Source: Anaerolineae bacterium (GTDB taxonomy: Bacteria; Chloroflexota; Anaerolineae; Promineifilales; Promineifilaceae). Taken from it: a DNA stretch of 64,000 nt. Shown piece after piece: positions 4,185-54,592 of this stretch. The notes under the pieces were generated by a model. The model saw only the letters and a list, made by a program, of their open reading frames with translations, was not told the origin of the DNA and ran no database searches. Where the stretch lies: assembly GCA_030425205.1 (NCBI GenBank), contig JAUIAP010000016.1, positions 55,956 to 119,955 on the forward strand, written 5' to 3'. Within the stretch, counting starts at the first letter, position 1. Each line of letters opens with the position of its first letter. The position numbers were made by a program, and so were the translations under genes.

Positions 4185-4290
4185 TGGAGACGTGGTGCGT
4201 GGTGCGTGGTGCGCGATGAGCACAGATCACGCATTACGCACCACGCACCACACCCTACAAACCACACAAATTCTCAAAGATTCACCCTTG
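4185..4290. repeat. intergenic hairpin repeat, copy 1 of (GTGGTGCGT)n family
   Basis: acgtggtgcgtggtgcgtggtgcgcgatg ... loop ... attacgcaccacgcaccacac, followed by conserved tail ..aaattctcaaagattcaccc; same architecture recurs at 24245, 26135, 52678, 54472. Confidence 0.7.
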
Positions 4291-4315
4291 TACACAGCGC
4301 ATCGGGGGTGCAGGT

Positions 4316-5584
4316 TTGCTAAACCGGATTGTCGCCCAACGTGATAGCCTTGCCTTCCTCATCGCCACGACATTGGCCTATGGATTGGACTATCTGTTTA
4401 ACGTCGTCAGCGGTCGCTGGCTGGGTAATGAACAGTTCGGCACGCTCGTCGCGTTGGCGGGGGTCGGACAGATTCTCGTCGTCGGCTCGCGCGTCATCCA
4501 GACTGTAACGACCCGCTACATCTCCCGTTTTCGCGCCGATACGCACGAGGAGAAGGTGCGCCCATTTATCACGGCGGCCCTGCGCGTGGGCATCTGGGGC
4601 GGGTTGGGGATCACCGTTTTATTGTGTCTGTTAGCCTTTCCATTGGCACGATTTTTGCGAATCGAGGATATGTGGGCTGTTTTTGCGCTGTTGGGCGGGG
4701 TGGGGCTGATGGTGGTTCGGCCGATTATCGGCGGAACGCTGCAAGGTCAGCAACGCTTTCTCCCGCTCGGCATCATTCAAATTATTCAGGCATCCATCCG
4801 TCTCCTAGCTGGCGCACTCTTAATTCTCGCGGGTTGGGGCGCATTTGGCGCGATGATCGCCCTGCCGATTGCCAGTCTGATTGCGCTCGTTTATGGCGCG
4901 TGGCTCCTGCGCGATCTGCTCGGCGGCACCAGCACTGTTTCCAATACCACCCCACTGCGCGAACTCGCCCACTACTCTGGCTACACGGCGGCGGGGCTGA
5001 TCGGATTCGCGCTGCTCATCAACATGGACGCCATTCTCGTCAAACGTTTCTTCGACGCGGACACGGCAGGCGTTTACGGTGCGGCCGTCACGTTGGGCAA
5101 AGTGGTGCAATTTTTTCCCGTTGCCATCATCATGGTCTTGTTTCCAAAAGCTGCCCATCGGCAGGCGACTAAACGCAACCCTGCCGCCGTTCTACCCCCT
5201 GCATTCGCCCTCATTACGGCAGTCTGTCTCGGTGTCTCGATTCTTTACTTCGCCTTTCCCGATCTACTGGTCGGCACAATCTTTGGCGACAAATTTGAGA
5301 TCAGCGGGCGGACACTTGGCACGCTTGGCCTTGCCATGTGGTTGCTTTCGCTCACAAACGTCTGGCTCAACTACTTTCTGTCGCTCAATCGCGTGCGTAT
5401 CGTCTATCTCATCTGGACGGGTGTCATCACGCAATACATCGCCTTCAACATCTGGCACGATCAGCTTTGGCATCTACCGACCGTCATGGCAATCAATGCG
5501 TTGTGGCTGACCGTTGCTGGTGCAATTCTATTTGTGCGATCAAGCAGGGAAGTCACTTCATTGCAAGAAACCCATGCACCCTAA
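4316..5584 (+). CDS. polysaccharide biosynthesis protein / oligosaccharide flippase (Wzx-like, MOP superfamily); TTG start
   Basis: 422 aa, ~12 predicted TM helices, N-terminal conserved stretch (..YGLDYLFNVVSGRWLGNEQFGTLVALAGVGQILVV..) characteristic of Wzx/PST family. ORF begins with TTG at 4316 preceded by GGGGG. Confidence 0.6.
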   Translation: MLNRIVAQRDSLAFLIATTLAYGLDYLFNVVSGRWLGNEQFGTLVALAGVGQILVVGSRVIQTVTTRYISRFRADTHEEKVRPFITAALRVGIWGGLGITVLLCLLAFPLARFLRIEDMWAVFALLGGVGLMVVRPIIGGTLQGQQRFLPLGIIQIIQASIRLLAGALLILAGWGAFGAMIALPIASLIALVYGAWLLRDLLGGTSTVSNTTPLRELAHYSGYTAAGLIGFALLINMDAILVKRFFDADTAGVYGAAVTLGKVVQFFPVAIIMVLFPKAAHRQATKRNPAAVLPPAFALITAVCLGVSILYFAFPDLLVGTIFGDKFEISGRTLGTLGLAMWLLSLTNVWLNYFLSLNRVRIVYLIWTGVITQYIAFNIWHDQLWHLPTVMAINALWLTVAGAILFVRSSREVTSLQETHAP

Positions 5585-6239
5585 ATTACTCTACTTCCGC
5601 CACAAACTGTTTCGCTATCGGCAAGTTGAACAAGACATTGCCCAACGACAGACATCGCTTTTGGACATTGGTTGCGGGGATGGCGAAAATATGCTGCGCT
5701 TTCAACAGGCGTCGCTTGAAAAAGTGGGGATTGAAGTGTCGTTTAGTCGGTTACAGACTGCCCAACGGCAGGGACTGGTCGTGCAGCAAGCGAGCGGAAC
5801 GGCGTTGCCATTTGCCGATGACAGCTTCGATATGCTCTACATCGCGCATGTGTTGCACCATGTTGCTGAATTCGACACGGTGCTGCGCGAAATTGAGCGC
5901 GTGGTTGTTGAGAATGGCGTGGTCTTCGTGGTGGAAACAGTGACCGATCACCCGCTGCTGCGTCTGGCGCGTTGGTTGCATCCCGTCTGGCAAGGGGATG
6001 AGGTCGAGGCAAATTGGCGTTACAGTCAGCTTTATGAGATGCTGACCGCACATAACTTTCGCGTCGAGCGCACAGAACGCTACAATGTACTCTTCTTTCT
6101 GTGGGAGATGTTACCGCTGGCATTTTGGCCGTTTGAAATTTTCACACCGCTGTTTGTTTATCTCGACCTATTCTTCGCTCGTTTCGCTCAGCGGTATTCA
6201 GCTCACTGCTATTTTGTTTTACGACGCACAAACACATGA
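5574..6239 (+). CDS. class I SAM-dependent methyltransferase (Methyltransf_11-like)
   Basis: Motif I LDIGCGDGENML, motif post-I, acidic motif (FADDSFDMLYIAHVLHHV). ORF track starts at 5514 but that overlaps flippase by 70 nt; internal ATG at 5574 (MHPKLLYF..) chosen. Stop TGA overlaps next start (ATGA at 6236-6239). Confidence 0.7.
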   Translation: MHPKLLYFRHKLFRYRQVEQDIAQRQTSLLDIGCGDGENMLRFQQASLEKVGIEVSFSRLQTAQRQGLVVQQASGTALPFADDSFDMLYIAHVLHHVAEFDTVLREIERVVVENGVVFVVETVTDHPLLRLARWLHPVWQGDEVEANWRYSQLYEMLTAHNFRVERTERYNVLFFLWEMLPLAFWPFEIFTPLFVYLDLFFARFAQRYSAHCYFVLRRTNT

Positions 6240-7915
6240 CCAAAATTGTACTCATTGCGCTGGATGGCGCGACATTGGATTTACTAAAACCGTGGATGGA
6301 CGCGGGTGAACTACCATTGCTGGCGCAAATCTTCGCAGAAGGTGCAGGCGGCACGCTCAACAGCACCATCCCATGGGCAACGCCAACCGCATTTGCATCG
6401 CTGGCAACCGGCACAAATCCGGGCAAACACGGCGTCTACGACTTTGGGACGCTGATTGGCGATGACTATACGGCGTTTGTGCCAACCAGTGGCGGAGATG
6501 TGCACGGTCGAACGTTGTGGGAACGGCTGTCCGACGCGGGGATCAGCTCGGCCGTCATCAACATGCCCATGACCTATCCCGCCCCAGCCATCGAAGGCAG
6601 TGTCATCGCGGGAATTCCCTACCCCAGCGGCAGCCCACAACTCTGTCATCCCCCTCATTTGCTAGATCGCCTTCAGCAAGAAGGCTGGGATTTGGCGCGC
6701 AATGCGTCTGATGATTTGGGCGGTAGTTATGCGGCGTATCTTGACGGACTGCTCGACCTTGTGCGCGTGCGGGGTGAGGCCACGGCGTGGTTGATCGCGC
6801 AAGATAATCCTGACTTTGTCGCCGTCCATTTTTTGGAAACAGATCAGGCACAACATCGCTTCTGGCAATTCATGGCGGGCGAGCCACGCTATGAACATGG
6901 CGGCGAATATACCGATGCGATTTTGCGCGTTTTCCAGCAAACGGAGTCGGCGATGCAGCAGATTATCAACGCAGCGGGGGAAGACGCGCTGATCTGTGTC
7001 ATGTCGGATCATGGATTTGGCGCCACCCGTCATCAAGTTTGGCTCAACAATTGGCTGTTGCAGAATGACTTTCTCGCGCTCAAGTCAAACATGGGCGTGC
7101 GTGTCAAACAACTGCTCTATCGGGCGGGATTGTCGCCAGCGGCGATTCGGGAGATGGCTCCCGAGCGACTCAAATTGGCGATCTTGCAGTTTTTTGAACA
7201 ACAAAAGGGGCGTGCGCTGGCGAGTCAGACGGAAGGGGGGGATGCGCCCGTCAAGCGCAAAGGGGTGATGGACTGGCTGACAGAACGCTTGGCAATCGAT
7301 TTTTATGATGTCGATTGGGCGCGGACAGTCGCATTTTCGACGGGGACAACGGCGGTGGGATATGTCTATTTGAACGTCGCTGGGCGCGATCCGCAGGGGG
7401 TGGTGAGCAGTCAGCAATATGCTGTGAAGAGGCAGCAGATTGCCGAAAAGTTGCGCGATTGGGAAGCGGTTGGGGAAGTGCTTTTGCGGGAAGAGGTGTG
7501 GAAGGGTTCGCAGTTGGAGCTTGCGCCCGATTTGGTGATTCGATGGGCAGCGGACACGACGGATGCACGTTATTTCCAGACGCGCTTTAGTAGTCATCAT
7601 CTGATGAAAGCGGTGCCAAATGATTATGCAAGCCATCGGCCGAATGGTCTGTTCGCCTTTTATGGCAACGGGGTCAAAACGGGAATGCTCAACGCTGAAC
7701 TGGTCGATTTGACGGCGACGCTGTTGTGGCTGTTCAAACAGCCTGTGCCGAGCGTGCTGGATGGACGGGTGTTGACCGACTGTTTTGTGGCCGAGCGCGC
7801 AGTTTTGGTTGTGGAAGAGGCGGAAGATTCGGCCGAAAAAAGCACAGGCGGATTTTCGGCCGATGATGACGCCTCTCTCAAAGAGGCGTTGCGGCGACTA
7901 GGCTATTTAGAGTAG
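6236..7915 (+). CDS. alkaline-phosphatase superfamily protein, type I phosphodiesterase / nucleotide pyrophosphatase (NPP) family
   Basis: N-terminal ..IVLIALDGATLDLL.. and ..IPWATPTAFASLATGTNPGKHGVYDF.. match the metal-binding/nucleophile region (TxPT..TG) of PF01663-type enzymes; C-terminal ..MSDHGFG.. His/Asp metal site. ATGA overlap with upstream methyltransferase indicates translational coupling. Confidence 0.65.
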   Translation: MTKIVLIALDGATLDLLKPWMDAGELPLLAQIFAEGAGGTLNSTIPWATPTAFASLATGTNPGKHGVYDFGTLIGDDYTAFVPTSGGDVHGRTLWERLSDAGISSAVINMPMTYPAPAIEGSVIAGIPYPSGSPQLCHPPHLLDRLQQEGWDLARNASDDLGGSYAAYLDGLLDLVRVRGEATAWLIAQDNPDFVAVHFLETDQAQHRFWQFMAGEPRYEHGGEYTDAILRVFQQTESAMQQIINAAGEDALICVMSDHGFGATRHQVWLNNWLLQNDFLALKSNMGVRVKQLLYRAGLSPAAIREMAPERLKLAILQFFEQQKGRALASQTEGGDAPVKRKGVMDWLTERLAIDFYDVDWARTVAFSTGTTAVGYVYLNVAGRDPQGVVSSQQYAVKRQQIAEKLRDWEAVGEVLLREEVWKGSQLELAPDLVIRWAADTTDARYFQTRFSSHHLMKAVPNDYASHRPNGLFAFYGNGVKTGMLNAELVDLTATLLWLFKQPVPSVLDGRVLTDCFVAERAVLVVEEAEDSAEKSTGGFSADDDASLKEALRRLGYLE

Positions 7916-7918
7916 ATA

Positions 7919-9868
7919 ATGCCCCAGCTCACCATTATCATCCCCACGATGAACGAAGCGGACAATATCGTGCCGCTCGTCACACGTTTGGCAGCCGCTG
8001 TTGCAGAGATCGACGCAGAGATTTTATTTGTCGATGATAGCAGCGATAAAACGCCCGACGTGATCGCAAGCGTGGCGGCAACGGCGGCGTTGCCTGTGCG
8101 CTGTATACATCGGCCGAAATCGCAACGGGACGGACTAAGTGGGGCGGTCGTTGTGGGGTTACGCGCCAGCACGGGTGATTATGTCTGCGTGATGGATGGG
8201 GATTTACAGCATCCGCCGAACGTCGTGCCGATTTTGCTGGAGCGAGCGGTGTTGAGTTCGGCCGATATTGTCGTCGCCAGCCGCCAGGCAAACCGCATTG
8301 GCCCCGTCGGGTTGCCACTGCCGCGCGCGCTCATCTCAAACACGCTCACCTTAATTGCGCGCTCCTGCTTCCCGCGCTCGCTCAAAGATGTTTCCGACCC
8401 GTTGACCGGCTTTTTCCTCGTGCGGCGGGCGGCCTTAGATATCGATCGCCTGCATCCCGACGGCTTCAAAATCCTGCTCGAAATTTTGGTGCGCCATCCC
8501 GATTTACGGGCGGGCGAACTGCTGTTTGACTTTGCGCTGCGTCATGCGGGCAGCAGCAAGGCAGATTTTCGCGAGGGGATGCGTTTCTTCCGCCATGTTT
8601 TGCGCCTGCGCACCACCGTTCACACCCGCCCGTTGTTGCGGTATGTGAGCGTCGTTTTTGCAGCCGCAATGGTCAAAGTGTTGGCGTTGTCGTTTTTGGC
8701 GCGGCGTAATTGGCGGCAAATCGTCGCTGTCTTTAGCGGTGCAATGGTTGGCGACTTTGTGGGTTGGGTTGGCAACCGAACCGTCGTTTTCCCCGATGAA
8801 AAATGGCGCACATTGCGGCGATTTTTGCGCGCCAGCACGCTCTTTAATGCGCTGGTATTTACCCCTGTCTTCGCCCTATTGCAGCGCATTCCCGCGCTGC
8901 GAACACGCCGACAAATCTCGGCGGCCCTGTCGATTGGCATCACGGGCTTTGTGCGCTATCTACTATCCGATCGCTGGATTGGCGCGAGTGGCTTGATGTC
9001 AGCCGAAGCGGTCAAAACGACCTATAGCATCCACGATAAGCTCGTCATTCAATCGCCTGTGCCGCTGCCCGATCTCGCCTACTTCCAGAGTGCGGCGCGC
9101 GAAATGACGGCCGACATCGTAATTCGCGTGGATCGGCATGGGACGCCGCGCAAGTTCGAGGATGGCGTTAGTTTTGATGACGGCATCGGCCGATTTGGGT
9201 TCGCATTCACCATCACCCCCGCAAAACAGATCGAAGTCGTTATTTCGCCCATTATCGCGCAGGCGCCACACGTTTTGTATGTCAACATCGTCGAGCCACT
9301 GTTGCGATACGCGGCGTTGCGCAAGGGGTTTGTCTTTGTTCAAGCTGGCGCGTACACGGATGGGCATGGTGCAGTTCTGGTGAGCAAGTCGGGGCGCAAC
9401 GCATCGGCGGCGGCGACGTTTGAGATATTGGGCAAGAATCCAGCAGCGCGTTATTTGGCCCATGATTCTGTGTTAATTGCGGCCGATGGGACGGTCTTTG
9501 CCTTTCCACATGCGCTGACAACGACGAAACTGCTCGAATCATCATGGCAGCGACGGCTGGGCGCATGGATGCGAAAACGACGCTCCTTGCCCGCGGCGAC
9601 GTTTAACGCCTATGTGCAGCGACTCTTTCCCCCGCTCCAGACGCCTGTCGAACAGGTCGCAACAATCGTTTCGTCCGCGCCACTCGTTGGGTATGCAGGG
9701 GCAGAAAACGACGCGGCCACCATTGCAAAAACAGTGCTACAAAATTCGGCCGATCCGCTCGGTTTCCCGCTCTTTTCGATGCTCGCCGACTACGAAGCCA
9801 CCGTGAACGATCACGACTTAGTTGCGGCAGAATGCGAACGATTAACACTTGCCTTGCAAAAGGCATAA
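7919..9868 (+). CDS. family 2 glycosyltransferase (Dpm1/polyprenyl-phosphate hexose synthase-like) fused to GtrA-like TM segment and ~300-aa C-terminal domain of unknown function
   Basis: N-terminus IIIPTMNEADNIVPLV..FVDDSSDKTPDV..VVASRQA.. = GT2 DXD/ED motifs typical of dolichyl/polyprenyl-phosphate mannose/glucose synthases; residues ~230-340 hydrophobic (4 TM); remaining 300 aa soluble, no recognisable motif. Start 4 nt after upstream stop. Confidence 0.6.
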   Translation: MPQLTIIIPTMNEADNIVPLVTRLAAAVAEIDAEILFVDDSSDKTPDVIASVAATAALPVRCIHRPKSQRDGLSGAVVVGLRASTGDYVCVMDGDLQHPPNVVPILLERAVLSSADIVVASRQANRIGPVGLPLPRALISNTLTLIARSCFPRSLKDVSDPLTGFFLVRRAALDIDRLHPDGFKILLEILVRHPDLRAGELLFDFALRHAGSSKADFREGMRFFRHVLRLRTTVHTRPLLRYVSVVFAAAMVKVLALSFLARRNWRQIVAVFSGAMVGDFVGWVGNRTVVFPDEKWRTLRRFLRASTLFNALVFTPVFALLQRIPALRTRRQISAALSIGITGFVRYLLSDRWIGASGLMSAEAVKTTYSIHDKLVIQSPVPLPDLAYFQSAAREMTADIVIRVDRHGTPRKFEDGVSFDDGIGRFGFAFTITPAKQIEVVISPIIAQAPHVLYVNIVEPLLRYAALRKGFVFVQAGAYTDGHGAVLVSKSGRNASAAATFEILGKNPAARYLAHDSVLIAADGTVFAFPHALTTTKLLESSWQRRLGAWMRKRRSLPAATFNAYVQRLFPPLQTPVEQVATIVSSAPLVGYAGAENDAATIAKTVLQNSADPLGFPLFSMLADYEATVNDHDLVAAECERLTLALQKA

Positions 9869-10002
9869 AAAAGTCACACCTTTTCACCCACCTTAAGCAA
9901 TCCTGTATACTGTAGTAGAATGTTGCTGTCTAGCACTTTGATCAGCCATAATATACGACAATGATTTAGGGTTTTTCCAGTACAAATAGAGGACATACGT
10001 GC

Positions 10003-10902: not shown

Positions 10903-10939
10903 CAGAGATTTAATCCATTCATTTCACAGGAGAGTCCGC

Positions 10940-11152: not shown

Positions 11153-11314
11153 AACGTGCGCCGTTCGTTTTTAGTGCCGCTCTATACGTTCCGAAATTCC
11201 AAGCTACCAAATGGAAAGAGTCGATCTAGCGTGATGTAACCTCGCCCTGTTCTGTAAAGAAAAAGTCAGTGGTGAGAATTCAGGTTTTATTTGAATAGAG
11301 TACGCTACAATTGA

Positions 11315-12448: not shown

Positions 12449-12567
12449 GAGCTGTGTCGCTGGAACAGTATGTACAAACAGTTTGCAATAGCTTGGTAGC
12501 CAGCATGAGGCGACATTGGCAAAGTGGTGGCAACAATCTTTGCTGCCAACGCAATGATGAGGAAAAG

Positions 12568-22914: not shown

Positions 22915-24243
22915 ATGCGACAAGCTATTCTAACCACCGATCTCGGCTTTGGTGACGCGGGTAAAGGGGCGATCACCGACTATCTGACACGCCAGCACAA
23001 CGCACACACTGTCGTGCGCTTCAACGGCGGCGCGCAGGCGGGGCATCGCGTTGTGACCGATAGCGGTGAACACGTCTTTTCCCAATTTGGCAGCGGCACG
23101 TTGGCAGGGGCGCGCACCCATCTTTCACGCTTTATGCTTGTCGAACCGTTGGCCATGCTAGCCGAAGCAGAACATTTACAGGAGCTAGGTATTCGTGATC
23201 CGTTTGGCATGACAACAATTGATGAACGCGCATTGGTGACAACACCGTTTCAGCGCGCGGTCAATCGGTTGAAAGAGCTGGCGCGCGGCGACGGGCGGCA
23301 CGGCAGCTGCGGGATGGGGATTGGCGAGACGATGGTCGATTGGCTGGCACATGGGGGGGATGTCCTCTATTGTGGCGACTTTTCCACCCCTACCCAACTC
23401 AAAGCCAAATTGCGCCATCTTCAGGCTGTCAACCAAGTCAAAGCGGCCACGCTGCGCGATCAACTCCCCGACACGCCACAGGCGCAACAGGAATGGGATT
23501 GTCTGCACGATCCCAACGCCGTAGACCGCATCATTGTGGCCTATGCCCCCTTTATTGAACTTGCGCATGTCGTTCCCAGCGACTACCTGCACCTTTTGCT
23601 TGGGCGTGATGGCACGATCATTTTTGAACCAGCCCAAGGAGTGCTGCTCGATGAGTGGTACGGGTTTCATCCGTATACGACGTGGAGCACAACCACATTG
23701 GCAAATGCAGAAACATTGCTACACGAAGCGGATTACAAGGGTAAAGTTGTGCGCATCGGCATCACGCGCGCCTACACCCCGCGACATGGCGCGGGCCCCT
23801 TGCCAACGGAAGGTGCCCAATTGACAGCACTACTGCCCGATGCACGCAATGGCTTTGATGCATGGCAGGAAGGGTTTCGAGTTGGCTGGCTCGATCTGGT
23901 GTTGTTGCGCTATGCGCTAAGCGTCGTCGGCAAGCTCGACGGGCTGGCCGTGACCTGTTTGGATCGCGTTGTGGGGTTGCCCGAGTTGAAGATTTGTACG
24001 AGTTATCGGGGGAGTGGCGAGATCGAAAAGTGGCAAGGGACAGTGGGAATTTCGGCCGAAAACGCCATTCTCGCCCATCAATCCCAATTAACCGCCGACC
24101 TCCTGCAAAGCCAACCCAACTTGCAGACGATCGATTCGGCCGAAACGCTATTAACAACTATCGAACGAGAGACAGGACTCGACGTGCTGATTGAAGGGTG
24201 GGGTGCGGCAGCGGATGCAAAGCGGAAAAGAGAAGGCGCGTAA
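22915..24243 (+). CDS. adenylosuccinate synthetase (PurA)-family ligase, divergent paralog
   Basis: 442 aa, PurA length; GFGDAGKGAITDYL (vs canonical GAQWGDEGKGKIVD: second Lys of GKGK lost), NGGAQAGHRVV (vs QGGHNAGHT), FSQFGSG (vs LIPSG), CGMGIGET (vs TGRGIGPAYEDK). Fold-level match to PurA but key signature deviations. Confidence 0.55.
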   Translation: MRQAILTTDLGFGDAGKGAITDYLTRQHNAHTVVRFNGGAQAGHRVVTDSGEHVFSQFGSGTLAGARTHLSRFMLVEPLAMLAEAEHLQELGIRDPFGMTTIDERALVTTPFQRAVNRLKELARGDGRHGSCGMGIGETMVDWLAHGGDVLYCGDFSTPTQLKAKLRHLQAVNQVKAATLRDQLPDTPQAQQEWDCLHDPNAVDRIIVAYAPFIELAHVVPSDYLHLLLGRDGTIIFEPAQGVLLDEWYGFHPYTTWSTTTLANAETLLHEADYKGKVVRIGITRAYTPRHGAGPLPTEGAQLTALLPDARNGFDAWQEGFRVGWLDLVLLRYALSVVGKLDGLAVTCLDRVVGLPELKICTSYRGSGEIEKWQGTVGISAENAILAHQSQLTADLLQSQPNLQTIDSAETLLTTIERETGLDVLIEGWGAAADAKRKREGA

Positions 24244-24244
24244 T

Positions 24245-24306
24245 ATTGCGTGTTGCGTATTGCGTATTGACCGCTGGATACGCACCACGCAATACGCAAT
24301 ACGTGT
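24245..24306. repeat. intergenic hairpin repeat, degenerate copy 2 (GCGTATTGCGTATTG ... TACGCACCACGCAATACGCAATACG)
   Basis: Inverted repeat between convergent PurA-like and recJ genes; contains the TACGCACCACGCA core of the family; likely bidirectional terminator. Confidence 0.5.
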
Positions 24307-24341
24307 GAGCTATCTCTGTAGAGCCAAACCCACTCTCCCCC

Positions 24342-26057
24342 TCACGCCGCTGGTCGAATATCCTTAATCATCAACTGCAACGTCCGTCGCCCGTTCCACT
24401 CATTGACGTTGACGCTATAAACAATATCGACGTATTGTGGCATTTGGGTAGCCCAAGAGGCTTGGCGGAAAGCGATCGTTTTGAACCCTGCGCGACCGTT
24501 GGTCACTTCCATTTGTAGATGGGTCTGATCTTTGCCGACGACGCGATGGCTGAGCACTTCGACACCTGAGGACATAAAGATCGGCCGATGATTCTCCATC
24601 CCACACGGCTCTAACTGTTGCAAATTTTCATACAACGCCCAGTCGATTTGATCGAGGTCGATTTCTGCGTCAATGTCGATGCTCGGCAGAAGTTCCTTGC
24701 CTTCAAGTGCGGTGCGGGCGATGTCGGTCATCTGCTCTTGGAAGAGTGGTAAATTTTTGTTTTCGACCGTAAAGCCAGCGGCAGCCGCATGTCCACCATG
24801 CCGCAAAAGCAGATGTGAAATTTCATCCAGCGCATCGGTGATGTGAAATTCATCAATCGAACGACAGGAGCCACGACTTTCCTCTTCCCCTTTCTCGATG
24901 ATGATGGCGGGGCGATAATGTTTGTCGGACAGGCGGCTGGCAACAAGACCCACGACCCCAGCCACAAAATTTTCACCCGCTGCGATCAAAATGGGGGCAT
25001 CTTCATCAATCATCCCTTCCGCCGCAATGCCCAAATCTTCAGTCAATTTTTGCCGCTTGCGGTTGAGCGATTCCAGTTCACGGGCGAGATTTAAGGCTGA
25101 GCGGCGGTCATGTGCGGCGAGCAGTTTGGCAGCGTCGTAGGCATGAGAAAGACGACCAGCCGCATTAATCCGCGGGCCGATGTTGAAGGCGATGGTTTCG
25201 GCCGAAATCGCCCCACCCTTGACGTTCGCCACTTCTCCCAACGCCGCAATCCCCGCACGCTTTGTGCCGTTCATCACGCGTAACCCATCGCGCACCAGCT
25301 TACGATTCTCGCCTAACAGCGGAGCCAAGTCGGCTACCGTCCCAATGGCGACGAGATCGAGCACGTTGTTGAGATCGAAGCGCACATAGTTTGGCATCGC
25401 CTGATAACAGGCCTGCGCCAATTTATAGGCAATCCCAACCCCTGCCAACATCTTTTCGGGATAGTCACAGGGTAGTTTGGGGTTGATGACGGCGAGTGCG
25501 GGGGGAATTTTTCGGCCGATGCTGTGATGATCGGTCACGATCATATCCAATCCGATGCTATTGGCGTGTTCAACCTCTTGCACTGAGCGAATACCGCAAT
25601 CAACCGAAATGACCAAATCTGCGCCGACCGTCTCCTTGATATGGGTGAGCGCATCGTTGTTCAAGCCATACCCCTCATCAACGCGATCGGGAATGTAGGG
25701 CTGTGCATTGCGGCGGGATATTCCCAAGCCACGCAACGCCTCTGTGAGCAACACGGTCGATGTCACACCATCCGCGTCAAAATCACCATAGACAACAATT
25801 CGTTCGTCCTGCTCAATCGCCTGTTGAATCCGCGCAACCGCCTTATCCATGTCGGGCAGCAGAAACGGATCTTCAGTTTCAAGATAATGCCCCTCAATAA
25901 ATCCTTGAATTTGAGCGGGGGTGGTCAATCCACGATTAAACAGCACCTGTACAAAGACAGGGTGCAGATTTGGCAACTGTGTTGCGAGTGTCGGTGCGAT
26001 TTTTGGTTGAACGTGCCAGCGTTTGGCGCGCAGGTCGAGCGGTCTTACAATTCCCAT
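24342..26057 (-). CDS. recJ: single-stranded-DNA-specific exonuclease RecJ
   Basis: DHH family motifs VVYGDFDADGVTSTVLL (motif I/II), MIVTDHHS (DHH motif III), DHHA1 region ..GGHAAAAGFTV.., OB-fold C-terminus; 571 aa. Confidence 0.9.
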   Translation of the reverse strand: MGIVRPLDLRAKRWHVQPKIAPTLATQLPNLHPVFVQVLFNRGLTTPAQIQGFIEGHYLETEDPFLLPDMDKAVARIQQAIEQDERIVVYGDFDADGVTSTVLLTEALRGLGISRRNAQPYIPDRVDEGYGLNNDALTHIKETVGADLVISVDCGIRSVQEVEHANSIGLDMIVTDHHSIGRKIPPALAVINPKLPCDYPEKMLAGVGIAYKLAQACYQAMPNYVRFDLNNVLDLVAIGTVADLAPLLGENRKLVRDGLRVMNGTKRAGIAALGEVANVKGGAISAETIAFNIGPRINAAGRLSHAYDAAKLLAAHDRRSALNLARELESLNRKRQKLTEDLGIAAEGMIDEDAPILIAAGENFVAGVVGLVASRLSDKHYRPAIIIEKGEEESRGSCRSIDEFHITDALDEISHLLLRHGGHAAAAGFTVENKNLPLFQEQMTDIARTALEGKELLPSIDIDAEIDLDQIDWALYENLQQLEPCGMENHRPIFMSSGVEVLSHRVVGKDQTHLQMEVTNGRAGFKTIAFRQASWATQMPQYVDIVYSVNVNEWNGRRTLQLMIKDIRPAA

Positions 26058-26134
26058 AGAACAGGGATTCTAACACATTCGTGGCGTGTATTGGATTAGC
26101 AAAATCATGGGGCGTTCTATCTAGTGTCACGAAG

Positions 26135-26250
26135 TTTTCGCAATAATGCAAAACGTGGTGCGTGGTACGTGGTGCGTATTCAGTTCACGCACCACGCACC
26201 ACGCACCACGCATAAGGGTAGCGAAAACCTAAAGACACATTCAAGTTCTC
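26135..26250. repeat. intergenic hairpin repeat, copy 3 with AAACCTAAAGAC flank
   Basis: ttttcgcaataatgcaaa-ACGTGGTGCGTGGTACGTGGTGCGT-attcagttc-ACGCACCACGCACCACGCA-taagggtaGCGAAAACCTAAAGACacattcaagttctcaaaatctcgc; in divergent promoter region between recJ and nitroreductase gene. Confidence 0.7.
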
Positions 26251-26287
26251 AAAATCTCGCAAGAATAACCTGAAACTGTTACAAATC

Positions 26288-44888: not shown

Positions 44889-47800
44889 TTATTCTGGCAA
44901 TAGTCCAATCCAATAGTCGTTGCCACCCCAATAGTAGCTGCCCGACCAGTAGTAGCTGCCGTTCCAGTAGTAGCTGGCCAAGTCAAAGAGGCTGTTACCC
45001 GCCCAGTAGTAACTGCCACCCCAATAGTAGGTGCCACTCCAATAGTACGTCCCGCTCCAGTAGTAACTGCCTGACCAGTAGTAGGTTCCGCTCCAGTAGT
45101 AGGTTCCAGCCCAATAGTAGGTTCCGTTCCAGAGATAGCCGTCAGAATCGGCCGATAATGCACTCTCCGCCGTCACATGCACGATGGGTTCAATTCCGGC
45201 ATCTAGCACAACATTTGTACAGCGATACTGATTGCCTTCCTGATGTTTGGCAACGACCCACCTGTGATTGCGATAGGTTTGACGCGATACTGTCTGACCG
45301 GGATGAATCGTCGCTTTTAATTGCGGACTGCCACTATAGCTGAGCCAGAACAAATACATCGTTTCGTTGCTTGAATTCTCCACCGTCAGCGTTGTGGAAT
45401 TGAGACCGTCTAACGACGAGCGAATGTCGCTCAACTCTTCACAGCGGGGATCACGCCCATGGACACGATAGCCGCCTGCATCCTCGTCGTAGTAGGCAGG
45501 TCCCACATAACGACCACCAGCGTGCATGTTTTGCGAAACATTGCCGCTATAGCTTCCATAAATCGCATCATACGGCTTCAAACGCCCTGCACCTTGCTGG
45601 AAGATGCTAAACGTCGTCTGTTGACCCGAAGAGTCACGCACGAGCGGTTGTGCCGATGCTTGCAGGCGGAACTTCACCTGATCAGGCGTCAACTCTGGAT
45701 TTTCTTGCAACATGAGGGCGACCACGCCAGATGTAACGGCGGTGGCGGCCGATGTGCCAGACCCTAAATAGTAGCCGCTATTCGTTTTCCGCACGCGTCG
45801 GTTGTTGGCATAACGACTGTTTGATTGCTGTGGTTGGGCGATGTGTGCGCCGGGTGCAACGATGTCGGGTTTAACAAAACCCATCTCGGTTGGTCCGGCC
45901 GCGCTAAATGGCGGAATATAGTCATCACTCGCATAGCCCGGCGTATACGCATCGGTGTAGGCACCGACCGTCACGACCATTGGGTCGTTGCCCGGTGTCG
46001 TGATCGAACCCGCGTATGGGCCCGTGTTGCCCGCCGCAACAATCACGACAACACCAGCATCCCACAGCAGTTCAACCGCCGTGTTAATTGGATTCTCCCA
46101 ATACGGCCCCGTCACAGGCCCCATCAGTGACAAGTTGACGACGCGGATATTCAACGCTTCATGGTGATCGTAGATGACCTCAAGACCACGTAGTACGTCT
46201 GCGTAGGTCGATTTTCCATCAGGGTCTAGCACGCGGATATCGTAGATGTTTGCGTCTGGTGCAACGCTGACAAAACGTCCTCTATGCCTATCGTTGCCGG
46301 CAATGATGCTGGCCATAAATGAGCCATGTCCATTTTCGTCGATGTCGGTATCGGGTAGTGCATTGTAGCGCATCACTACATTATTTTTTAGAACGGCTGG
46401 ATTGATTCCCGTATCCACAACGGCAACGCCAATGCCTGCACCACTAAGGCCTGCCTGATGGAGAGCGGGAATGCCGATTTCATCTAAATAGTCAGTTGGA
46501 GAGACCTCGGACGCTGTCGTCTTTTGTGTTTCATAAGGGGCAAGATAGCTGCCGGAGATGACTTCACGACGACCGTTGGGGATTTGCCACGCGACAGAGA
46601 GATGGTCGGCTCCCGTATGTTCTTTTTGAATCGCCTCAATATAGTAACGTTGCCCAGCTTCGAGATAAATTTTGCGCGACTTCTGTGATGCAAGCCAATT
46701 CCATTCGTGATAGTAGGTCCACTCGGTCACTGAGGCGATTTGTTGCGCTTCGTCGGGTCGCTCTGTTGCGCTGAGATAGAGGCGTGCATAGTTGTTGCCA
46801 GCCAACCAGAAGGTATATTCGCCCGTCACGGGTGGGTATAGATAGCCGCGTACGCGAGTCCCATAATGATCATCCATGTTGACGGGGGTTTCAAATTCGT
46901 TGATGTGACTCGTTCCCGTTGGATTGTTTGGATAGTTAGGATGGTTTAGTAGTGCGTTCAGGCTATCGCCGTTGACGTTGAGCCAGTATTCGCGCAGGAT
47001 TGTCCCACGACTATCATCAGGGCGAGAGCGGAAGAGAACTTCGTCTTGAATCGGCCGTTTTGAGAAGTTCGCGCTTTGATATGAGACGACGAGTCTATCG
47101 ACATAGCCATAGCCACCAAAATACTCGACTGTAATTGGATGATACCCTTGCTTGAGGAAGATGGTGCCGCTGCGTTCGCGTAGACCATGCAGGCCGTCAT
47201 TATCGACGACGAGTTGCCCATTGATGTGTACTTGGCTGCCGCCATTTGATTCGCTATAAAATGTGTAGGTTTCATCACGGTCAATGTAAATAAAACCGGT
47301 GTAACGGAAACCAAAGTAATCAATGCGTCCACGCACAGATAGATCGATGTTGTCGACCGTACCATGAAATGTCGGTACTAGATTTTCAAAATTAGGCAAA
47401 CGCGACCACCAGCCTTGATAGTACTGATAGAAAAGACCGTTGTCGCTGCCGCGCGCTGTGCCACCGTTCTGCTGGTTGAGCGTAATGTTGTCGAGATAGA
47501 AGGTCGGTTGGGGAGATTCGGTCAAACTTTGCCAAATGATGCCGTGAATGGGTGTATCGGCCGAAATAATCTCATCAAGCGCAATTTCATACTGCATCCA
47601 CGCGCCCTTTTCGGCCGTGACGGTCGTCTGCGACTTGCCCCAGTCGATTCCATCGGCCGTCACTAGCTGCAACCAGAGCGTTTGCCCGCCGGATTCGCCA
47701 CCATGCAACCAAAAACTCAGCGTGTCAACTTCATCGACCGTGAATGGCTTGTTCGTTTTGAGATAGAACGCCGAATGTGCCGCATCAAGTGAGACGGCAA

Positions 47801-48371: not shown

Positions 48372-48525
48372 GGGGGAGTTCCCATTGGAAAATTTACCAA
48401 TACCTGCAAACATCTATCACTCCTACGCTCTGATAGCGCATGAAATCTGTTCTGTTGTTTGGGGTGTAATTTGAAGCGTTCACACCACCGATTACTGTAA
48501 CGAATGCTAGTGTAGTACTCTGATC

Positions 48526-49194: not shown

Positions 49195-49199
49195 GCCCT

Positions 49200-50525
49200 A
49201 AGGATCGCGAATTAAATAACTGTCGTAAATGATAGTTGCGGCATGGCACGATAATTCCACTTGGGCAGATAGGCATCAAAAATAATCGGCATCGTTTCCC
49301 TGAATGTGTCTGAAACCTTGCGACCAGTCTGGTAGAGTTTGTCGAAAACGGCGACAGAGACAGAAAGCCCAGTAGCCGTTTTGGTGCGTGCAATCAGGTC
49401 ACGAACGATGGCAACAGATTTGAAGACAACTCCTTGACAGGCAAGGGTGACATGGGGGAATAAGCGATGCTCAATCGGATTGTATTTGGAACAGTAAGGC
49501 GGATAATGGGCAATACGAATCTCGATGCCGATGTCATTGACCAATTTCTGTAATTCTTCCTTGAAAATATAATAGTGTGAACTGTTGCTGCCGCCACCAT
49601 CGCAAAGCAGCAGAATAGAGGTTGCATTGGGATAGTGATGTTGACCCGCACTCATCCACCAGTGCCGAATACTATCGCAGGCAAATTGACTGGTATCTTT
49701 ACTGGTTCCGATATGGATATACCCGTGATTGAGGGCTAAATCATAGAGCGCATGAGGAATCACAATGCCATCTGCGCTACTGGTAAAATCATGGTCATTG
49801 GTCTGGATAACCTGTTGGGTATACAGGCGACCGTCACGGTAAAAATTGCCCAGATACTCCTTCTTTTTCGTGTCCATACTCACGACAGGGTTGCCACTTT
49901 CCATGTACACTTTGCGTAGTTGTTCAATGTTCTTGAACTGTTCATCCCGATTAGCCACCTGACCCATTGTCACACTCTTCTGTGCTTTACGACGCCGAAA
50001 ACGATGTTGATTCAGTAACTTTTTGACCGTTGTCACACTCGTTTTTAATTGGTGTTCTTCCAGCATCATCTCGCTGATCTCTCTTGGTTTTAGATGTGTC
50101 CAGCGTATTCCCTCATCCATCGGGTCTCCCGCCGTATACGTCTCAATCACCTTAAGAAATGCTGCATTCAACCGTTCTTTTTTTGTCAAATGGTTTGCGC
50201 CCACCCCCTGGTCGGCGAATTCGTCCTGCTGGGATTTCATTCTTATTGCTCGCCAATTCAGCTTGCCCTCGTTGAATGGTTCTCGCTGAGCAACCCAACA
50301 CACTTTCCATATACAACTGTCCGCCATACCCCACCTTTTTGGCTTCTAGTGCTGCATAATGCCGCTTATCTCGCTCCGAGAGCGTTTCAAAAAACTTGCG
50401 CATTTGTTGTTCTATTTCTACGTCGTATTTTTTCATTTTTAGCTCCATTCTGTCAAAATATGATTGTAGTCCTTTCTCTTTCCCTTTGGCTACAATTACG
50501 ACATCTATTTAATTCGCGATCCTAA
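49200..50525 (-). mobile_element. ISAzo13-family insertion sequence (~1.3 kb) with ~19-26 bp terminal inverted repeats
   Basis: Left end ctAAGGATCGCGAATTAAATAactgtcg (49199-) vs reverse complement of right end ..cgacatcTATTTAATTCGCGATCCTtag (..50525): 18-bp perfect IR plus imperfect extension; internal DDE_Tnp_ISAZ013-type transposase; element lacks the TCGGCCGA palindrome that saturates flanking DNA. Confidence 0.75.
49212..50448 (-). pseudogene. ISAzo13-family transposase split by frameshift (N-terminal HTH ORF 50152..50448; DDE C-terminal ORF 49212..50327)
   Basis: N-terminal ORF (..MESVLGCSARTIQRGQAELASN..GGRKPF) is the HTH part; C-terminal ORF has ..TAGDPM.., ..VVSMDTKKKEYLGNFYRDG.., ..LLLCDGGGSNS.. 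(DDE). Two overlapping frames of ~175 nt suggest frameshift (inactivating or programmed). Confidence 0.6.
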
Positions 50526-50640
50526 GTGTAACGAAAATAAGCGGCGTGCATGACCCAGACAGCACAAACTTACGCGAAATATTGATGGAGATGGTATGAT
50601 CAACTCTCTAAGAACTGTTACGCGATACACGAGGAAAAAG

Positions 50641-52641
50641 ATGCCCAACCGCCTTGCACAAGAAAGCAGCCCCTACCTACTACAACACGCCAACAACCCC
50701 GTCAACTGGTTCCCGTGGGGCGAAGATGCCCTTGCCCTTGCAAAATCAGAAGATAAACCGATCCTGATCAGCGTCGGCTATGCGGCGTGCCACTGGTGTC
50801 ACGTCATGGAACATGAGTCATTTGAAGATGAGCGTATCGCCGCGTTCATGAACGAAAACTTCGTCAACATCAAAGTTGATCGCGAAGAGCGTCCCGATCT
50901 CGATCAAATTTACATGAGCGCAGTACAGGCGATGACGGGTCAGGGGGGCTGGCCGATGAACGTCTTTTTGACCCCGGCTGGCGAACCATTCTATGGTGGC
51001 ACCTACTACCCGCCGACCCCACGCTACGGCATGGCGAGTTGGGGGCAAGTGCTGTCGGGGGTCGCCAATGCGTGGCAGACGCGCCGCGCTGATCTCACCA
51101 AGCAGGCGGGTGAAATGGCGGGACACATTCAGCAGGAATTTGCGCTCAAGAATCAGAACTATGTGCTTGACCCGCTGCTTTTCGAGCGGGCGGAAAAACA
51201 GTTCGACACCCAGTTTGACCGTTCACGCGGTGGCTTTGGTGGCGCACCTAAATTCCCGCCGTCGATGTCGCTTGAATTTCTGCTACGCATCGACTCGCTA
51301 GAGATGGTGACAACGACGTTCGATCAGATGGCATGGGGCGGCATCTATGACCATGTCGGCGGCGGCTTTGCGCGTTATTCGGTCGATGCCAACTGGCTGG
51401 TTCCCCATTTTGAGAAGATGCTCTACGACAATGCCCTGCTCGCCCGTGTCTACTTACACGCCTATCAGGTGACGGGGAATGCCCACTATCGCCAAGTGGT
51501 CGAGGAGACGCTCGACTGGACGTTACGCGAGATGACAGAGGATGGCGGTGGGTTTTACAGCAGTCTCGATGCGGATAGCGAGGGGGTCGAAGGCAAGTTC
51601 TATGTCTGGTCGCAAGCTGAGATAGAACAGATTCTCGGCGACGACGCACCACTGTTCATGGCACGCTATGACGTGACCGCACGCGGCAATTGGGAAGGCC
51701 ACAACATTCTCAACACCACCCACAGCAACTTAGCTGACGTCGCGGCACAATTTGATCTATCAATTGCGGCGGCTCAAAAGACGCTGGCCGCAGCACGACA
51801 AAAGCTGTTTGCCGTGCGAGCGCAACGGATTTGGCCGGGTCTCGATGACAAAATATTGACGGCGTGGAATGGGCTGATGTTGGCAGCGTTTGCGGAGGCG
51901 GGGCGCGTCTTAAAACGTGACGACTATTTGGCAGCAGCGGTCAAAAACGCCGATTTTCTTCATGCCACGATGCGAACTGATGCGGGTCGGTTATTGCGAA
52001 CATGGAAGGCGGGCAACGCGGCGAAATATAACGCCTATTTGGAAGATTACGCCTACCTAGCGGATGGGCTGTTGGCACTTTATCAGGCGACGTTCGACGT
52101 GCGCTGGTTTGAATGGGCGCAAGAGCTGACTGACATGATGATGACGCACTTTCAAGATAGTGAAAATGGGGGTTTTTATGACACGTCAGACGATCATGAA
52201 ACGTTGCTCTATCGACCGAAATCCCTACAAGACAATGCCACCCCCTCCGCCAACGCGATGGCGTGTAAGGTTTTGATTTTGATGAATCTTTTGACAGGTG
52301 ACGGCGCACTGGTCGATTATGCTGAAGAGATGGTCGCCGCGCTCTATCCCGCGCTTGCGCAATACCCAAACGGGTTCGCCCACTGGTTAGGGTGCGCGTG
52401 GTTACTGTTGAGCGAGCCAAAACAGGTGGCGCTGGTTGGCACCGATGTGAGCGAGTTGGCGGATGTGGTCTGGGGAGAATTTCGGCCGAATCTTGTCATC
52501 GCCGCTGGCACAGGTGACACACCACCCCTCTTGGCAAATCGCACACAAATCGGGGATCGGCCGACGGCCTACGTCTGCCAAAATTTCGTTTGTCAACTAC
52601 CCGTTACAGACCCAGAGAAGCTACGCGAACAGTTAAGTTAA
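50641..52641 (+). CDS. thioredoxin-domain protein YyaL/DUF255 family (thioredoxin-like N-terminus + six-hairpin glycosidase-like domain)
   Basis: [59 protein letters not shown] = hallmark DUF255/YyaL N-terminus (CHWCH); start ATG 50641 with GAGGA RBS. Confidence 0.85.
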
Positions 52642-52677
52642 CGTGGGGTGTGGCGTTCTTTTAGAAAAGGGGTTGGT

Positions 52678-52775
52678 GTCTTTAGATTTTCGCCACTAAG
52701 GTGCGTGGTGCGTGTCCAGAATACGTACCACGCACCACGCACCACGAATGATAATGTGGCTAAAACTTCATTGAT
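52678..52775. repeat. intergenic hairpin repeat, copy 4 (inverted orientation), GTCTTTAGATTTTCGCC flank
   Basis: GTCTTTAGATTTTCGCCACTAAGG-TGCGTGGTGCGTG-tccagaata-CGTACCACGCACCACGCACCACG-aatgataatgtggctaaaactt; near-identical (reverse-complement) to copy 5. Confidence 0.7.
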
Positions 52776-52794
52776 ACGAACAAAAAACGAATTA

Positions 52795-54336
52795 TCAATA
52801 CGTCGGCAACCCAAGATCAACCATCTCTTGCCCTGCCAAAAACGCCTTTAACGCCGCCTTTGTCGCATCCCGATCGTCCCAATCATATTCTGTTGTGCCA
52901 AAACACATCGACTGTTCATGCCCTTTGCCACAGACGAGGACGAGGTCGTGTGCGCCCGCGCAGGTGAGCGCGTGATAGATGGCGCGACCGCGATCAGGGA
53001 TGCGCCAAAATGTCACCCCTTCTTTGCCGCCGTGTTTGCGACACCCTTCGGCCATCATCCCAAGAATATCATCCAGTGGCTCTTGTCGCGGGTCTTCGGC
53101 AGTAAGCACCGTCAGGTTGGCGTGCTGTTCAGAGATTTCGGCCATCATACGCCGCTTTTCGACATCGCGCCGACCTGCACTACCAAACACGGTGATAATT
53201 TTGCCAGTCGTCATACTGCGGGCTGCTTCGATGGCGCGTTTGAGCGCGTTCGGCGTGTGGGCAAAATCAACGATGACGGGGAACGGCTGCCCCATCACGA
53301 TCCGTTCCATGCGACCACTAATCAGCGTCACATTTTCGATCCCGCGTTTGATATGTTTATTTTCGATTTCGAGTGAGTGGGCAGCGGCGGCGGCGGCGAG
53401 CATGTTGTAGATGTTAAATCGGCCGACCAGCGGGGTTGCAATTTCGATGCCGAGCGGTTCTATGTTGAAGGTGGTTTTTTCGGCCGAAAAGCGCACCCCA
53501 TTTGCCCATATATCCCAGCGGTTGTCCATCCCATAGCTAATTTGCAGCGGCTTCTCAAATTGAGAGAGATATTCGGCCGAAACATCGTCCCCATTGATCA
53601 CGGTCGCCCGTTCCGCCAGTTCAAACAACCGCCCCTTTGCGTGTAGATAGTTCTCCCATGAGCCATGATAATCTAAATGCTCGTGGGTGACATTTGTCAT
53701 CACGGCGACATCGTAAAATGCAGTGTCGGCGCGATACTCCGCCAAGCCATAGCTGGTCGATTCCAGAACACAGTGTGTACAGCCATCATCGACCATTTTG
53801 CGCAGGAAAGCCTGCGTCTCAGGCGCTTGCGGCGTGCTGACGTGTAGCCCTGTCGGCTCCTCTCGATTGCCGATCACCGCCTTGATGGTGCTGATCATGC
53901 CCGTTTTGTGTCCAGCCGCGATCAGAATTTCATAGACAAGATTGGTCACCGACGTTTTGCCATCTGTCCCCGTTACACCCACAACGGTCAAATGTTGGCC
54001 GGGAAAATCGTGCCATGCGGCCGCCAGCCATGTCTCGACCATTGCCGTATCTGGCACAGTCCAGACACGGGCATGGTTCTCTGGAACGCCCGCCTGCCCC
54101 GCCTGCGCGATGACCAACGCCGCACCTTTTTCCAATGCCTGCAAGACAAAGGGGTGTCCGTTGCTGTAGGGGCGCACGCGCGCAATGAAGCAGTCGCCCA
54201 CTTCAACAAGCCGACTGTCTTCAACGATGCGATTGAATGTAATGGGGGAACCCGTGTGCGGGGGTGGCAGCACATAGTCGTGCTGAACTGCAAAGGCGTG
54301 CCATGTTGCGAGAAGATCGGTGATCGTTTTGCTCAT
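52795..54336 (-). CDS. Mur ligase family protein (MurE-like UDP-MurNAc-tripeptide synthetase)
   Basis: VGVTGTDGKTSVTNLVYEIL (Mur ligase P-loop GTxGKT), middle-domain ..TFNIEPLG.., C-terminal ..DFAHTPNAL.. and ..VFGSAGRRD.. motifs; 513 aa. Not in a dcw cluster, so exact specificity uncertain. Confidence 0.7.
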   Translation of the reverse strand: MSKTITDLLATWHAFAVQHDYVLPPPHTGSPITFNRIVEDSRLVEVGDCFIARVRPYSNGHPFVLQALEKGAALVIAQAGQAGVPENHARVWTVPDTAMVETWLAAAWHDFPGQHLTVVGVTGTDGKTSVTNLVYEILIAAGHKTGMISTIKAVIGNREEPTGLHVSTPQAPETQAFLRKMVDDGCTHCVLESTSYGLAEYRADTAFYDVAVMTNVTHEHLDYHGSWENYLHAKGRLFELAERATVINGDDVSAEYLSQFEKPLQISYGMDNRWDIWANGVRFSAEKTTFNIEPLGIEIATPLVGRFNIYNMLAAAAAAHSLEIENKHIKRGIENVTLISGRMERIVMGQPFPVIVDFAHTPNALKRAIEAARSMTTGKIITVFGSAGRRDVEKRRMMAEISEQHANLTVLTAEDPRQEPLDDILGMMAEGCRKHGGKEGVTFWRIPDRGRAIYHALTCAGAHDLVLVCGKGHEQSMCFGTTEYDWDDRDATKAALKAFLAGQEMVDLGLPTY

Positions 54337-54471
54337 GCCGCAATGATACTACAATGGATTTAGGAAATAAATAACGGGCGAAACGGTTGGCGCAAGTTGC
54401 AAGTGGCAAGGTAGGATGAGTCTCATACTTGCAACTTCTTACCCACGCAATGGATATTCGTTCATGTCACG

Positions 54472-54592
54472 TAGTTTTCGCCACTTGATAAGTCGTGGTG
54501 CGTGGTGCGTACTCTGGACACGCACTACGCACCACGTACCACTCACCTAAGTGGCGCAAACCTAAAGACCCTGCCCATATTCTTAAAATTCG
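54472..54592. repeat. intergenic hairpin repeat, copy 5 with GGCGCAAACCTAAAGAC flank
   Basis: agttttCGCCACTTgataa-GTCGTGGTGCGTGGTGCGTAC-tctggacac-GCACTACGCACCACGTACCAC-tcaccTAAGTGGCGcaAACCTAAAGACcctgcccatattcttaaaattcgcg; nested outer stem CGCCACTT/AAGTGGCG. Confidence 0.7.

Follow-up and report, generated by a model that had tools for sequence, protein, structure and literature searches.

Inverted heptamer arrays as candidate REP-like extragenic palindromes in an Anaerolineae genome, with a hairpin core that recurs in genomes labelled as at least seven phyla

Repetitive extragenic palindromic (REP) elements and REPINs are short, non-coding, multi-copy imperfect palindromes, which are dispersed through intergenic spacers, in many cases immediately behind stop codons, and which stand singly or within larger palindromic structures. 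REP-like elements have been studied mainly in Proteobacteria, and each lineage has its own sequence together with a dedicated REP-associated tyrosine transposase (RAYT). The 28 REP families described have stems of 6-13 bp, and a GT[AG]G head has been reported for the REPs of Opitutus (PMC3733652). A second comparable group is formed by heptanucleotide repeats. Among the long simple-sequence repeats of prokaryotes, heptamers are given as the commonest class (Mrazek et al. 2007, as quoted in PMC4679880), and both the TAACTGA repeats of Beggiatoaceae, Cyanobacteria and Bacteroidetes and the GGGNATC repeats of Xanthomonas and Nostoc are scattered over phyla in a patchy manner that suggests horizontal spread, although no vehicle is evident (PMC4679880; PMC4692102). 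The elements described here were found in a stretch of 64,000 nucleotides from an Anaerolineae bacterium (contig JAUIAP010000016.1, positions 55,956 to 119,955), called the window below. We read them, with a probability of about one half, as a dispersed family of REP-like, non-autonomous, non-coding extragenic palindromes that are built on inverted heptamer arrays.

A first-pass annotation of the window had placed five palindromic elements in it, each with a long hairpin, and an element is present at every one of the five positions. The 16-mer GTGGTGCGTGGTGCGT, with up to three mismatches allowed, matches 18 times, always within the five loci, against 1.15 matches expected from shuffles, and a 12-mer with at most one mismatch matches 15 times, only in the same loci, against 0.94 expected. 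All five copies are intergenic and lie between open reading frames (ORFs) with Pfam support. Because successive 16-mer matches are spaced by 7 bases and Tandem Repeats Finder gives a period of 7 for both arms of every locus, at 2.1-4.1 units per arm, the repeat unit is the heptamer GGTGCGT (complement ACGCACC) and not a 9-mer, as had been supposed. In the core of the element two short tandem arrays, of GGTGCGT in the 5' arm and of ACGCACC in the 3' arm, are inverted relative to each other and form a near-perfect hairpin or cruciform of 15-39 bp. The predicted fold of each locus is a long hairpin of -39.6 to -58.3 kcal/mol (z -4.2 to -8.1), and none of 200 shuffles folded as well.

Three grades of the element are found in the window: a bare hairpin (copy 2), a hairpin in an asymmetric shell (copy 1) and a hairpin with both a shell and an outer stem (copies 3-5). 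The last three, of which copy 4 is on the reverse strand, are full composites of about 125-135 nt with a common order. Their 5' half consists of TGTCACGWAG, the outer-stem half TTTTCGCCAC, a spacer, (CGTGGTG)n and a loop of 9-14 nt; the 3' half continues with (CACCACG)n, a spacer, the outer-stem half GTGGCGAAAA, CCTAAAGACAC, about 8-12 nt, the tail TTCTCAAAAT and CGC. A conserved single-stranded tail adjoins the hairpin in all three. The outer stem had been ascribed to every copy, but in a motif search TTTTCGCCAC/GTGGCGAAAA was found only in copies 3, 4 and 5 and is absent from copies 1 and 2. The flank GCG(A/C)AAA(C/T)CTAAAGAC is likewise confined to copies 3, 4 and 5, as had been proposed for it, and the left flank TGTCACGWAGTTTTCGCC (up to three mismatches) matches copies 3 and 5 only. 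The tail TTCTCAAAAT, named earlier as a shared element, has its place in the composite order, but taken alone (up to one mismatch) it matches 12 times against 4.7 expected, barely above chance. The composite copies are 81-84% identical, with indels inside the heptamer arrays. Copies 4 (reverse complement) and 5, once described as near-identical, share 83% identity over 113 aligned columns, indels included.

The exact pattern GGTGCGTGGTGCGT-N5-35-ACGCACCACGCACC was searched in one genome per GTDB species. The 28-base hairpin pattern occurs at no fewer than 101 loci, that is, at least 101 against a chance expectation that we estimate at about 5e-4 from 28 fixed bases, 31 gap sizes and 1.2e12 positions. 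The loci lie in metagenome-assembled genomes (MAGs) labelled Chloroflexota, Gemmatimonadota, Verrucomicrobiota, Planctomycetota, Acidimicrobiia, Blastocatellia (Acidobacteriota) and Patescibacteria, which amounts to at least seven phyla. The labels among them include Caldilineaceae, Ardenticatenaceae, Anaerolineae, Thermoflexales, Gemmatimonadota, Verrucomicrobiota/Limisphaerales, Gemmataceae, Acidimicrobiia, Blastocatellia and Patescibacteria/Uhrbacteria, and several genomes contribute many hairpin loci each. In the 106 hairpins that include the window copies, the stems have a median length of 25 bp with very few mismatches and the loops measure 3-35 nt. Since a looser hairpin scan gave four hairpins (five with copy 2) in the 64 kb of the window and 11 extra ones in 724 kb of hairpin loci, the window is dense in such hairpins.

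While the heptamer core is shared, the loops and the flanks or shells are lineage-specific. A perfect GTGTACCGGTACAC centre is present in one Caldilineaceae chromosome, loops of 24-28 nt with a loose CCCGGAC motif are found in the Verrucomicrobia-type MAGs, and the loops in Gemmatimonadales contain GACTGC. The Ardenticatenaceae MAG JACKCD01 (L003, L009, L033, L036, L076 and L084) has its own shell of about 130 nt around the heptamer core, with inverted ends GGYTCTTT..GGGGTTGAC (GGYTCTTTSGGA..GGGGTTGAC) and a conserved 24-nt loop. Judged from these sequences, it is a second lineage with a shell built around the core, in parallel to the window composite. No heptamer hairpin was found in viral contigs, nor in 80 loci (550 kb) around recJ of the nearest available relatives, in which the best RecJ is 66% identical; a blastn search of plasmids gave no match, and its low-complexity filter may have masked the query.

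The arms of the hairpin vary in a manner that preserves their pairing. Copies, and likewise orthologous loci, differ in their unit number, in steps of about 7. The hairpin persists between species in three pairs of orthologous loci: two of them, L023/L090 and L006/L007, have near-perfect arms while the unit number, the loop and the neighbouring spacer differ, and in the third, L004/L050, one copy has decayed. Within the window, the arms of copy 2 consist mostly of the variant heptamers ATTGCGT and GTTGCGT paired with ACGCAAT, so that the change of GG to AT is compensated on the opposite arm. Scored against a phase-matched heptamer consensus, 117 pair cells carry compensated double changes, versus about 5 expected if the arms were independent, and 122 carry one-sided changes; these counts are to be read with the caveat that the stems were chosen for pairing and that copies within one genome are not independent events. 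Compensatory changes had been suggested earlier as a sign of an RNA. They are present in number, but they are not RNA-specific, because a perfect palindrome folds alike on both strands. With symmetric scoring, G·T (54) and A·C mispairs (47) are about equally frequent on the arbitrary top strand, and on the transcribed strand of 42 tandem-gene contexts, as defined by crude gene calls, there are 16 G·U and 21 A·C mispairs (p=0.51). The sense strand thus shows no G·U bias, and nothing points to selection that acts on the mRNA fold specifically.

In the Gemmatimonadales pair, the orthologous elements at 5124-5186 of L006 and 3939-4001 of L007 have nearly identical arms, and the loop GACTGC stands in opposite orientation to the flanks, as if, to judge from the two sequences, it had been flipped via recombination between the arms.

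The elements of the window lie in spacers of every kind. Copy 1 (4178..4283, plus strand) has its hairpin core at 4192-4251, with a 26-bp stem and an 8-nt loop, in a diverged shell (left flank TGTAACG..., right flank ...CCTACAAACC..ATTCTCAAAGATTC) that lacks both outer-stem halves in the alignment. It stands in tandem context between the gene of a DUF11/PD40 protein on the left and a polysaccharide biosynthesis gene on the right, both on the plus strand. Copy 2 (24244..24303, no strand assigned), a bare hairpin without shell, lies between the convergent purA (plus) and recJ (minus). It starts directly 3' of the purA stop codon (24241-24243), which the predicted stem takes in, and ends about 38 nt short of the recJ stop. 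Copy 3 (26125..26260, plus strand) occupies most of the 230-bp spacer between the divergent recJ (minus) and a nitroreductase gene (plus). It is a full composite of TGTCACGAAG, the outer stem TTTTCGC/GCGAAAA, a hairpin at 26154-26210 with a 24-bp stem and a 9-nt loop, CCTAAAGACAC and TTCTCAAAATCTCGC. Copy 4 (52652..52773, minus strand) is a full composite in the opposite orientation, with its core at 52700-52743 and the outer stem TTTTAGCCAC/GTGGCGAAAA, between a DUF255/thioredoxin-like gene (plus) and a convergent Mur ligase gene (minus). Copy 5 (54465..54595, plus strand), also a full composite, has its core at 54494-54536 and the outer stem TTTTCGCCAC/GTGGCGCAAA. It lies in tandem context between the Mur ligase gene and glgC, both on the minus strand; the element is antisense to both genes and its tail abuts the glgC stop codon.

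Two tandem, one divergent and two convergent contexts are thus represented, and the earlier view that the elements are not terminators of a single gene class holds. Of the two copies in tandem contexts, copy 1 has its shell in the sense orientation to the flanking genes and copy 5 has it antisense to them, and the shells of copies 4 and 5 are directed into the 3' ends of genes; the orientation of the element is therefore unrelated to transcription. The hairpin loci elsewhere comprise 41 tandem, 14 convergent and 14 divergent contexts by crude ORF calls. Of 128 flank measurements in these loci, 31 place the base of the hairpin 0-5 nt past a long-ORF stop, which makes this the densest distance bin, and 26 of 210 hairpin tails (12%) are T-rich, with at least 5 T in 10 nt. 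A terminator scan around copies 2-5 revealed no U-tract and no terminator-like window element, and a sigma-70 promoter scan of the same copies revealed no consensus promoter inside the elements. The tail TTCTCAAAAT had been considered as a -10 box; this was dropped for want of an acceptable -35 and because copies 4 and 5 are directed into 3' gene ends. Because neither heptamer arm has a stop codon in any frame, the hairpins can be read through as ORF extensions.

The reading as a REP-like DNA repeat is preferred because the elements are dispersed over spacers of any kind, independent of orientation, variable in length as expected from slippage, conserved in their palindromy and persistent with occasional decay. 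They share with REPs and REPINs all of the general properties listed in the opening sentence, and the GT[AG]G head of Opitutus recurs in every heptamer in the variant form GTGG. Strict membership of the REP/REPIN class nevertheless fails by the criteria of PMC3733652, because of the stem length and the missing terminal tag. The stems, 15-39 bp of tandem heptamers, compare with 6-13 bp in the described families, and no single unpaired terminal tag (GTAG, GT[AG]G or CGTC) is present. The identical heptamer core is also found in seven phyla, whereas REP sequences are usually lineage-specific, and the heptamer hairpins, unlike REPs, do not avoid divergent contexts. The first-pass suggestion of a REP-like (or bacterial interspersed mosaic) or non-autonomous mobile element thus stands as far as dispersal, intergenic position and palindromy are concerned; the REP tag and stem length, and the ends and duplications of a miniature inverted-repeat transposable element (MITE), were not found.

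The likeness to heptanucleotide repeats, which include the short tandemly repeated repetitive (STRR) sequences of cyanobacteria, lies in the 7-nt unit and in the short intergenic arrays of 2-5 units, variable in number, near start or stop codons. The STRR units are CCCCAGT, TTGGTCA and CAACAGT, none of which is the unit here. The known heptamer repeats are direct arrays on one strand, for some of which G-quadruplex formation or regulator binding has been proposed, whereas here two arrays of the unit GGTGCGT are always inverted around a loop and pair with each other. The MITEs, the Correia/NEMIS elements and the enterobacterial repetitive intergenic consensus (ERIC) sequences resemble the present elements in their length of about 100-130 nt, their potential for a long hairpin, their intergenic position and the lineage-specific shells around a core; the cyanobacterial Nezha is likewise a structured small repeat. 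In the heptamer element, unlike these, the conserved part is the centre and not the ends.

Several observations weigh against the REP-like reading, beginning with the stem length and the head: no GTAG-type unpaired head exists in the elements. A mobilising gene did not emerge from any of the searches. A phmmer search with E. coli RayT (E<=10) against six-frame ORFs of the window and the 101 loci gave no match, a weak negative as it rests on a single-sequence query. All-against-all clustering of the 3,556 ORFs of the hairpin loci showed that only generic families recur (ABC ATPases, histidine kinases, SDRs and sulfatases) and that no transposase of any kind recurs beside the hairpins. The genes enclosed by two nearby hairpins, when read by eye, were ordinary ones (SDR, pseudopilins, TruA-like, SpoU-like) with no transposase evident. 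Inspection and alignments of the boundaries of copies 3, 4 and 5 revealed no target-site duplication. The search for further copies in other genomes succeeded for the core, but the window-type shell (ACGCACCAC...GCGNAAAYCTAAAGAC) is absent from the fetched hairpin loci and from metagenome contigs. Moreover, arms that are kept while loop and spacer diverge, as in two of the three orthologous pairs, would also fit functional selection, and a host function that depends on the sequence could instead be the reason why one exact heptamer is conserved across phyla.

If the elements are REP-like, they would act and be maintained at the level of DNA. The arrays would grow and shrink through replication slippage, and the complementarity of the arms would be kept by selection for the hairpin or by correction within the palindrome. 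Dispersal would be brought about in trans by a putative enzyme that recognises the heptamer hairpin, for instance an HUH/Y1 transposase by analogy with the RAYT/REP pair, and the spread over phyla would be due to horizontal transfer. Where the elements are transcribed, the stems would probably be incidental barriers to 3'-exonucleases or RNase III sites at gene ends, as in the case of REPs.

For the cross-phylum heptamer, the most economical idea is that an element with a sequence-specific partner has spread horizontally; its precedent is the TAACTGA heptamer repeat, which also crosses phyla without a known vehicle (PMC4679880). We tentatively suggest, as a possibility that we rate well below even odds, that the hairpin represents a previously undescribed, horizontally spread class of extragenic palindromes in at least seven phyla, in which the heptamer is kept as the recognition or substrate sequence of a putative enzyme or binding protein that acts in trans, for example a transposase or nuclease of a new, hairpin-specific kind or a host factor, and of which the window elements are the elaboration of one lineage. 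In open-access text, the sequence strings of the hairpin found no match in the literature, and inverted heptamer arrays are not described in the REP survey (PMC3733652) or in the papers on heptamer repeats (PMC4679880, PMC4692102). One exact heptamer hairpin common to uncultured members of seven phyla stands in contrast to the lineage-specific sequences of REPs, and if the sharing of the heptamer reflects a common trans-acting partner, phylogenetic profiling could reveal a new mobilisation or recognition system.

The position of the hairpins relative to genes could also be accounted for by mRNA punctuation, that is, by selection of RNA stem-loops at gene ends as terminators independent of a U-tract, as barriers to 3'-exonucleases or as RNase III sites that determine how stable neighbouring cistrons are relative to each other. 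Four of the five window copies lie downstream of at least one gene, copy 2 right at the purA stop codon; the distances past long-ORF stops are densest at 0-5 nt, arms stay paired at orthologous sites, and stems of 15-39 bp would serve as RNase III substrates. We nevertheless regard this explanation as rather improbable: copy 3 lies in a divergent promoter region, about 20% of the loci are divergent, T-rich tails are few and no window copy is terminator-like, G·U does not exceed A·C on the sense strand, and a generic role of hairpins leaves the identity of the heptamer across phyla unexplained. The resemblance to classical Rho-independent terminators, which goes as far as a GC-rich stem-loop downstream of genes and, for copies 2 and 4, a position between convergent genes, breaks down in the missing U-tract, in stems several times longer than typical and in hairpins that also occupy divergent spacers or lie immediately upstream of start codons. 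A small structured RNA family or a cis-regulatory RNA motif, with one strand transcribed, was another of the early candidates. The strong predicted folds, the compensatory changes between the arms and the conserved single-stranded tail by the hairpin in copies 3-5 would suit it. Against it, Rfam 15 at the gathering score finds only a tRNA-Met in the window and no family for the elements, and lenient scans of copies 3 and 5 give only generic miRNA-precursor hairpins far below threshold; the shell occurs in either orientation relative to genes, the elements contain no consensus promoter or terminator, the G·U bias is missing, and the co-variation is of the kind that any perfect palindrome has on both strands. 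A strand-specific structured RNA, which we consider quite unlikely, and a classical terminator are thus not supported.

Conservation of the heptamer itself across seven phyla, in the face of differing loops and flanks, would be expected if the arrays were iteron-like sites for a conserved DNA- or RNA-binding protein such as a nucleoid, regulatory or recombination factor; dimeric or bidirectional binding would then explain the inverted layout. The arms are indeed more conserved than the adjacent non-coding DNA in two of three orthologous pairs, and the cross-phylum TAACTGA heptamer, proposed as a binding site, offers a precedent (PMC4679880). Structure is favoured over sequence read-out, however, because variant heptamers are tolerated when compensated, as in copy 2; in addition, no candidate protein recurs nearby in the ORF clustering and one orthologous copy has clearly decayed, and such arrays appear to us an unlikely explanation. 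The remaining alternative is a classical MITE mobilised by a DDE transposase, for which the window offers a candidate source: an apparently intact insertion sequence (IS) of the ISAzo13 family at 49198-50526, with 34-bp terminal inverted repeats that are 88% complementary. Its transposase, DDE_Tnp_ISAZ013 (E 1e-104), is apparently split over the overlapping minus-strand ORFs 50152-50448 and 49212-50327 and is the only transposase in the window. The composite copies of about 125 nt with an internal inverted repeat and the version of about 130 nt with inverted ends in the Ardenticatenaceae MAG are what such a MITE might look like. The ends of the window element are asymmetric, however (TGTCACGWAG versus TTCTCAAAAT-CGC); the inverted repeat is internal, and the window copies have neither terminal inverted repeats nor target-site duplications. 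The terminal repeats of the IS (CTAAGGATCGCGAATT...) are unrelated to the ends of the hairpin element, so that the window holds no matching autonomous IS, and hairpins without any shell exist (copy 2 and many loci). A MITE is therefore very unlikely.

The hairpins also have consequences for assembly and annotation. The RecJ or PurA of the window is encoded without any difference by Logan contigs of two independent short-read assemblies, ERR3428545 and SRR24874946. The recJ contig from ERR3428545, 100% identical to window positions 24275-26197, begins in the loop of copy 2 and stops in the 3' arm of copy 3, and the purA contigs, including that from SRR24874946, stop 29 nt past the purA stop codon, within copy 2. 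Contig breaks at the hairpins are expected from a multi-copy repeat, which suggests that the genome contains more copies. The public short-read contigs of the same organism (L001, L185 and L186) thus end within the hairpins at 24244-24303 and 26154-26210, at gene boundaries, and in these phyla the hairpins interrupt short-read assemblies at such boundaries. Read-through of the hairpins by ORF callers inflates gene calls. The hairpins mark short intercistronic spacers, where mRNA processing may be affected.

Among the hairpin loci, those from MAGs titled 'uncultured Klebsiella sp.' (CAZCBE01 and CAZOCL01) have a G+C content of 65%; they are among L004, L013, L018, L023, L026, L037, L043, L047, L050, L053, L068, L069 and L080. 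The taxonomic label is probably wrong, because the hairpin subtype and the gene content match the Limisphaerales MAGs. Three loci of Verrucomicrobia-type MAGs, L053 (4228-5379), L026 and L069, contain three consecutive pseudopilin-like genes with the AFTLIE prepilin motif and a heptamer hairpin before each. The 3' arm continues in frame into the motif (...THHAPRTT-LAFTLIEV), without a start codon between hairpin and motif; on the strength of this arrangement, the hairpin may lie within, or sequester, the translation start or the leader.

The window, with a G+C content of 54.0%, also contains 78 copies of the octamer palindrome TCGGCCGA, mostly inside coding regions (777, 1781, 2513 ... 63754), versus 1.6 expected. 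From its sequence and abundance it looks like a highly iterated palindrome of the HIP1 type with a different sequence; HIP1 itself, GCGATCGC, does not occur in the window. Among the fetched loci, a similar enrichment of TCGGCCGA is seen only in an Ardenticatenaceae MAG (L049, L065 and L075), whose G+C content is also 54.0%. The window probably stems from a Chloroflexota lineage related to this MAG, with no near relative in the collections that were searched. A further repeat of the window, at 44905-45138 on the minus strand, is coding, with a period of 18 nt, and is translated into about 13 tandem hexapeptides of the form G(T/S)YYW(S/A/G).

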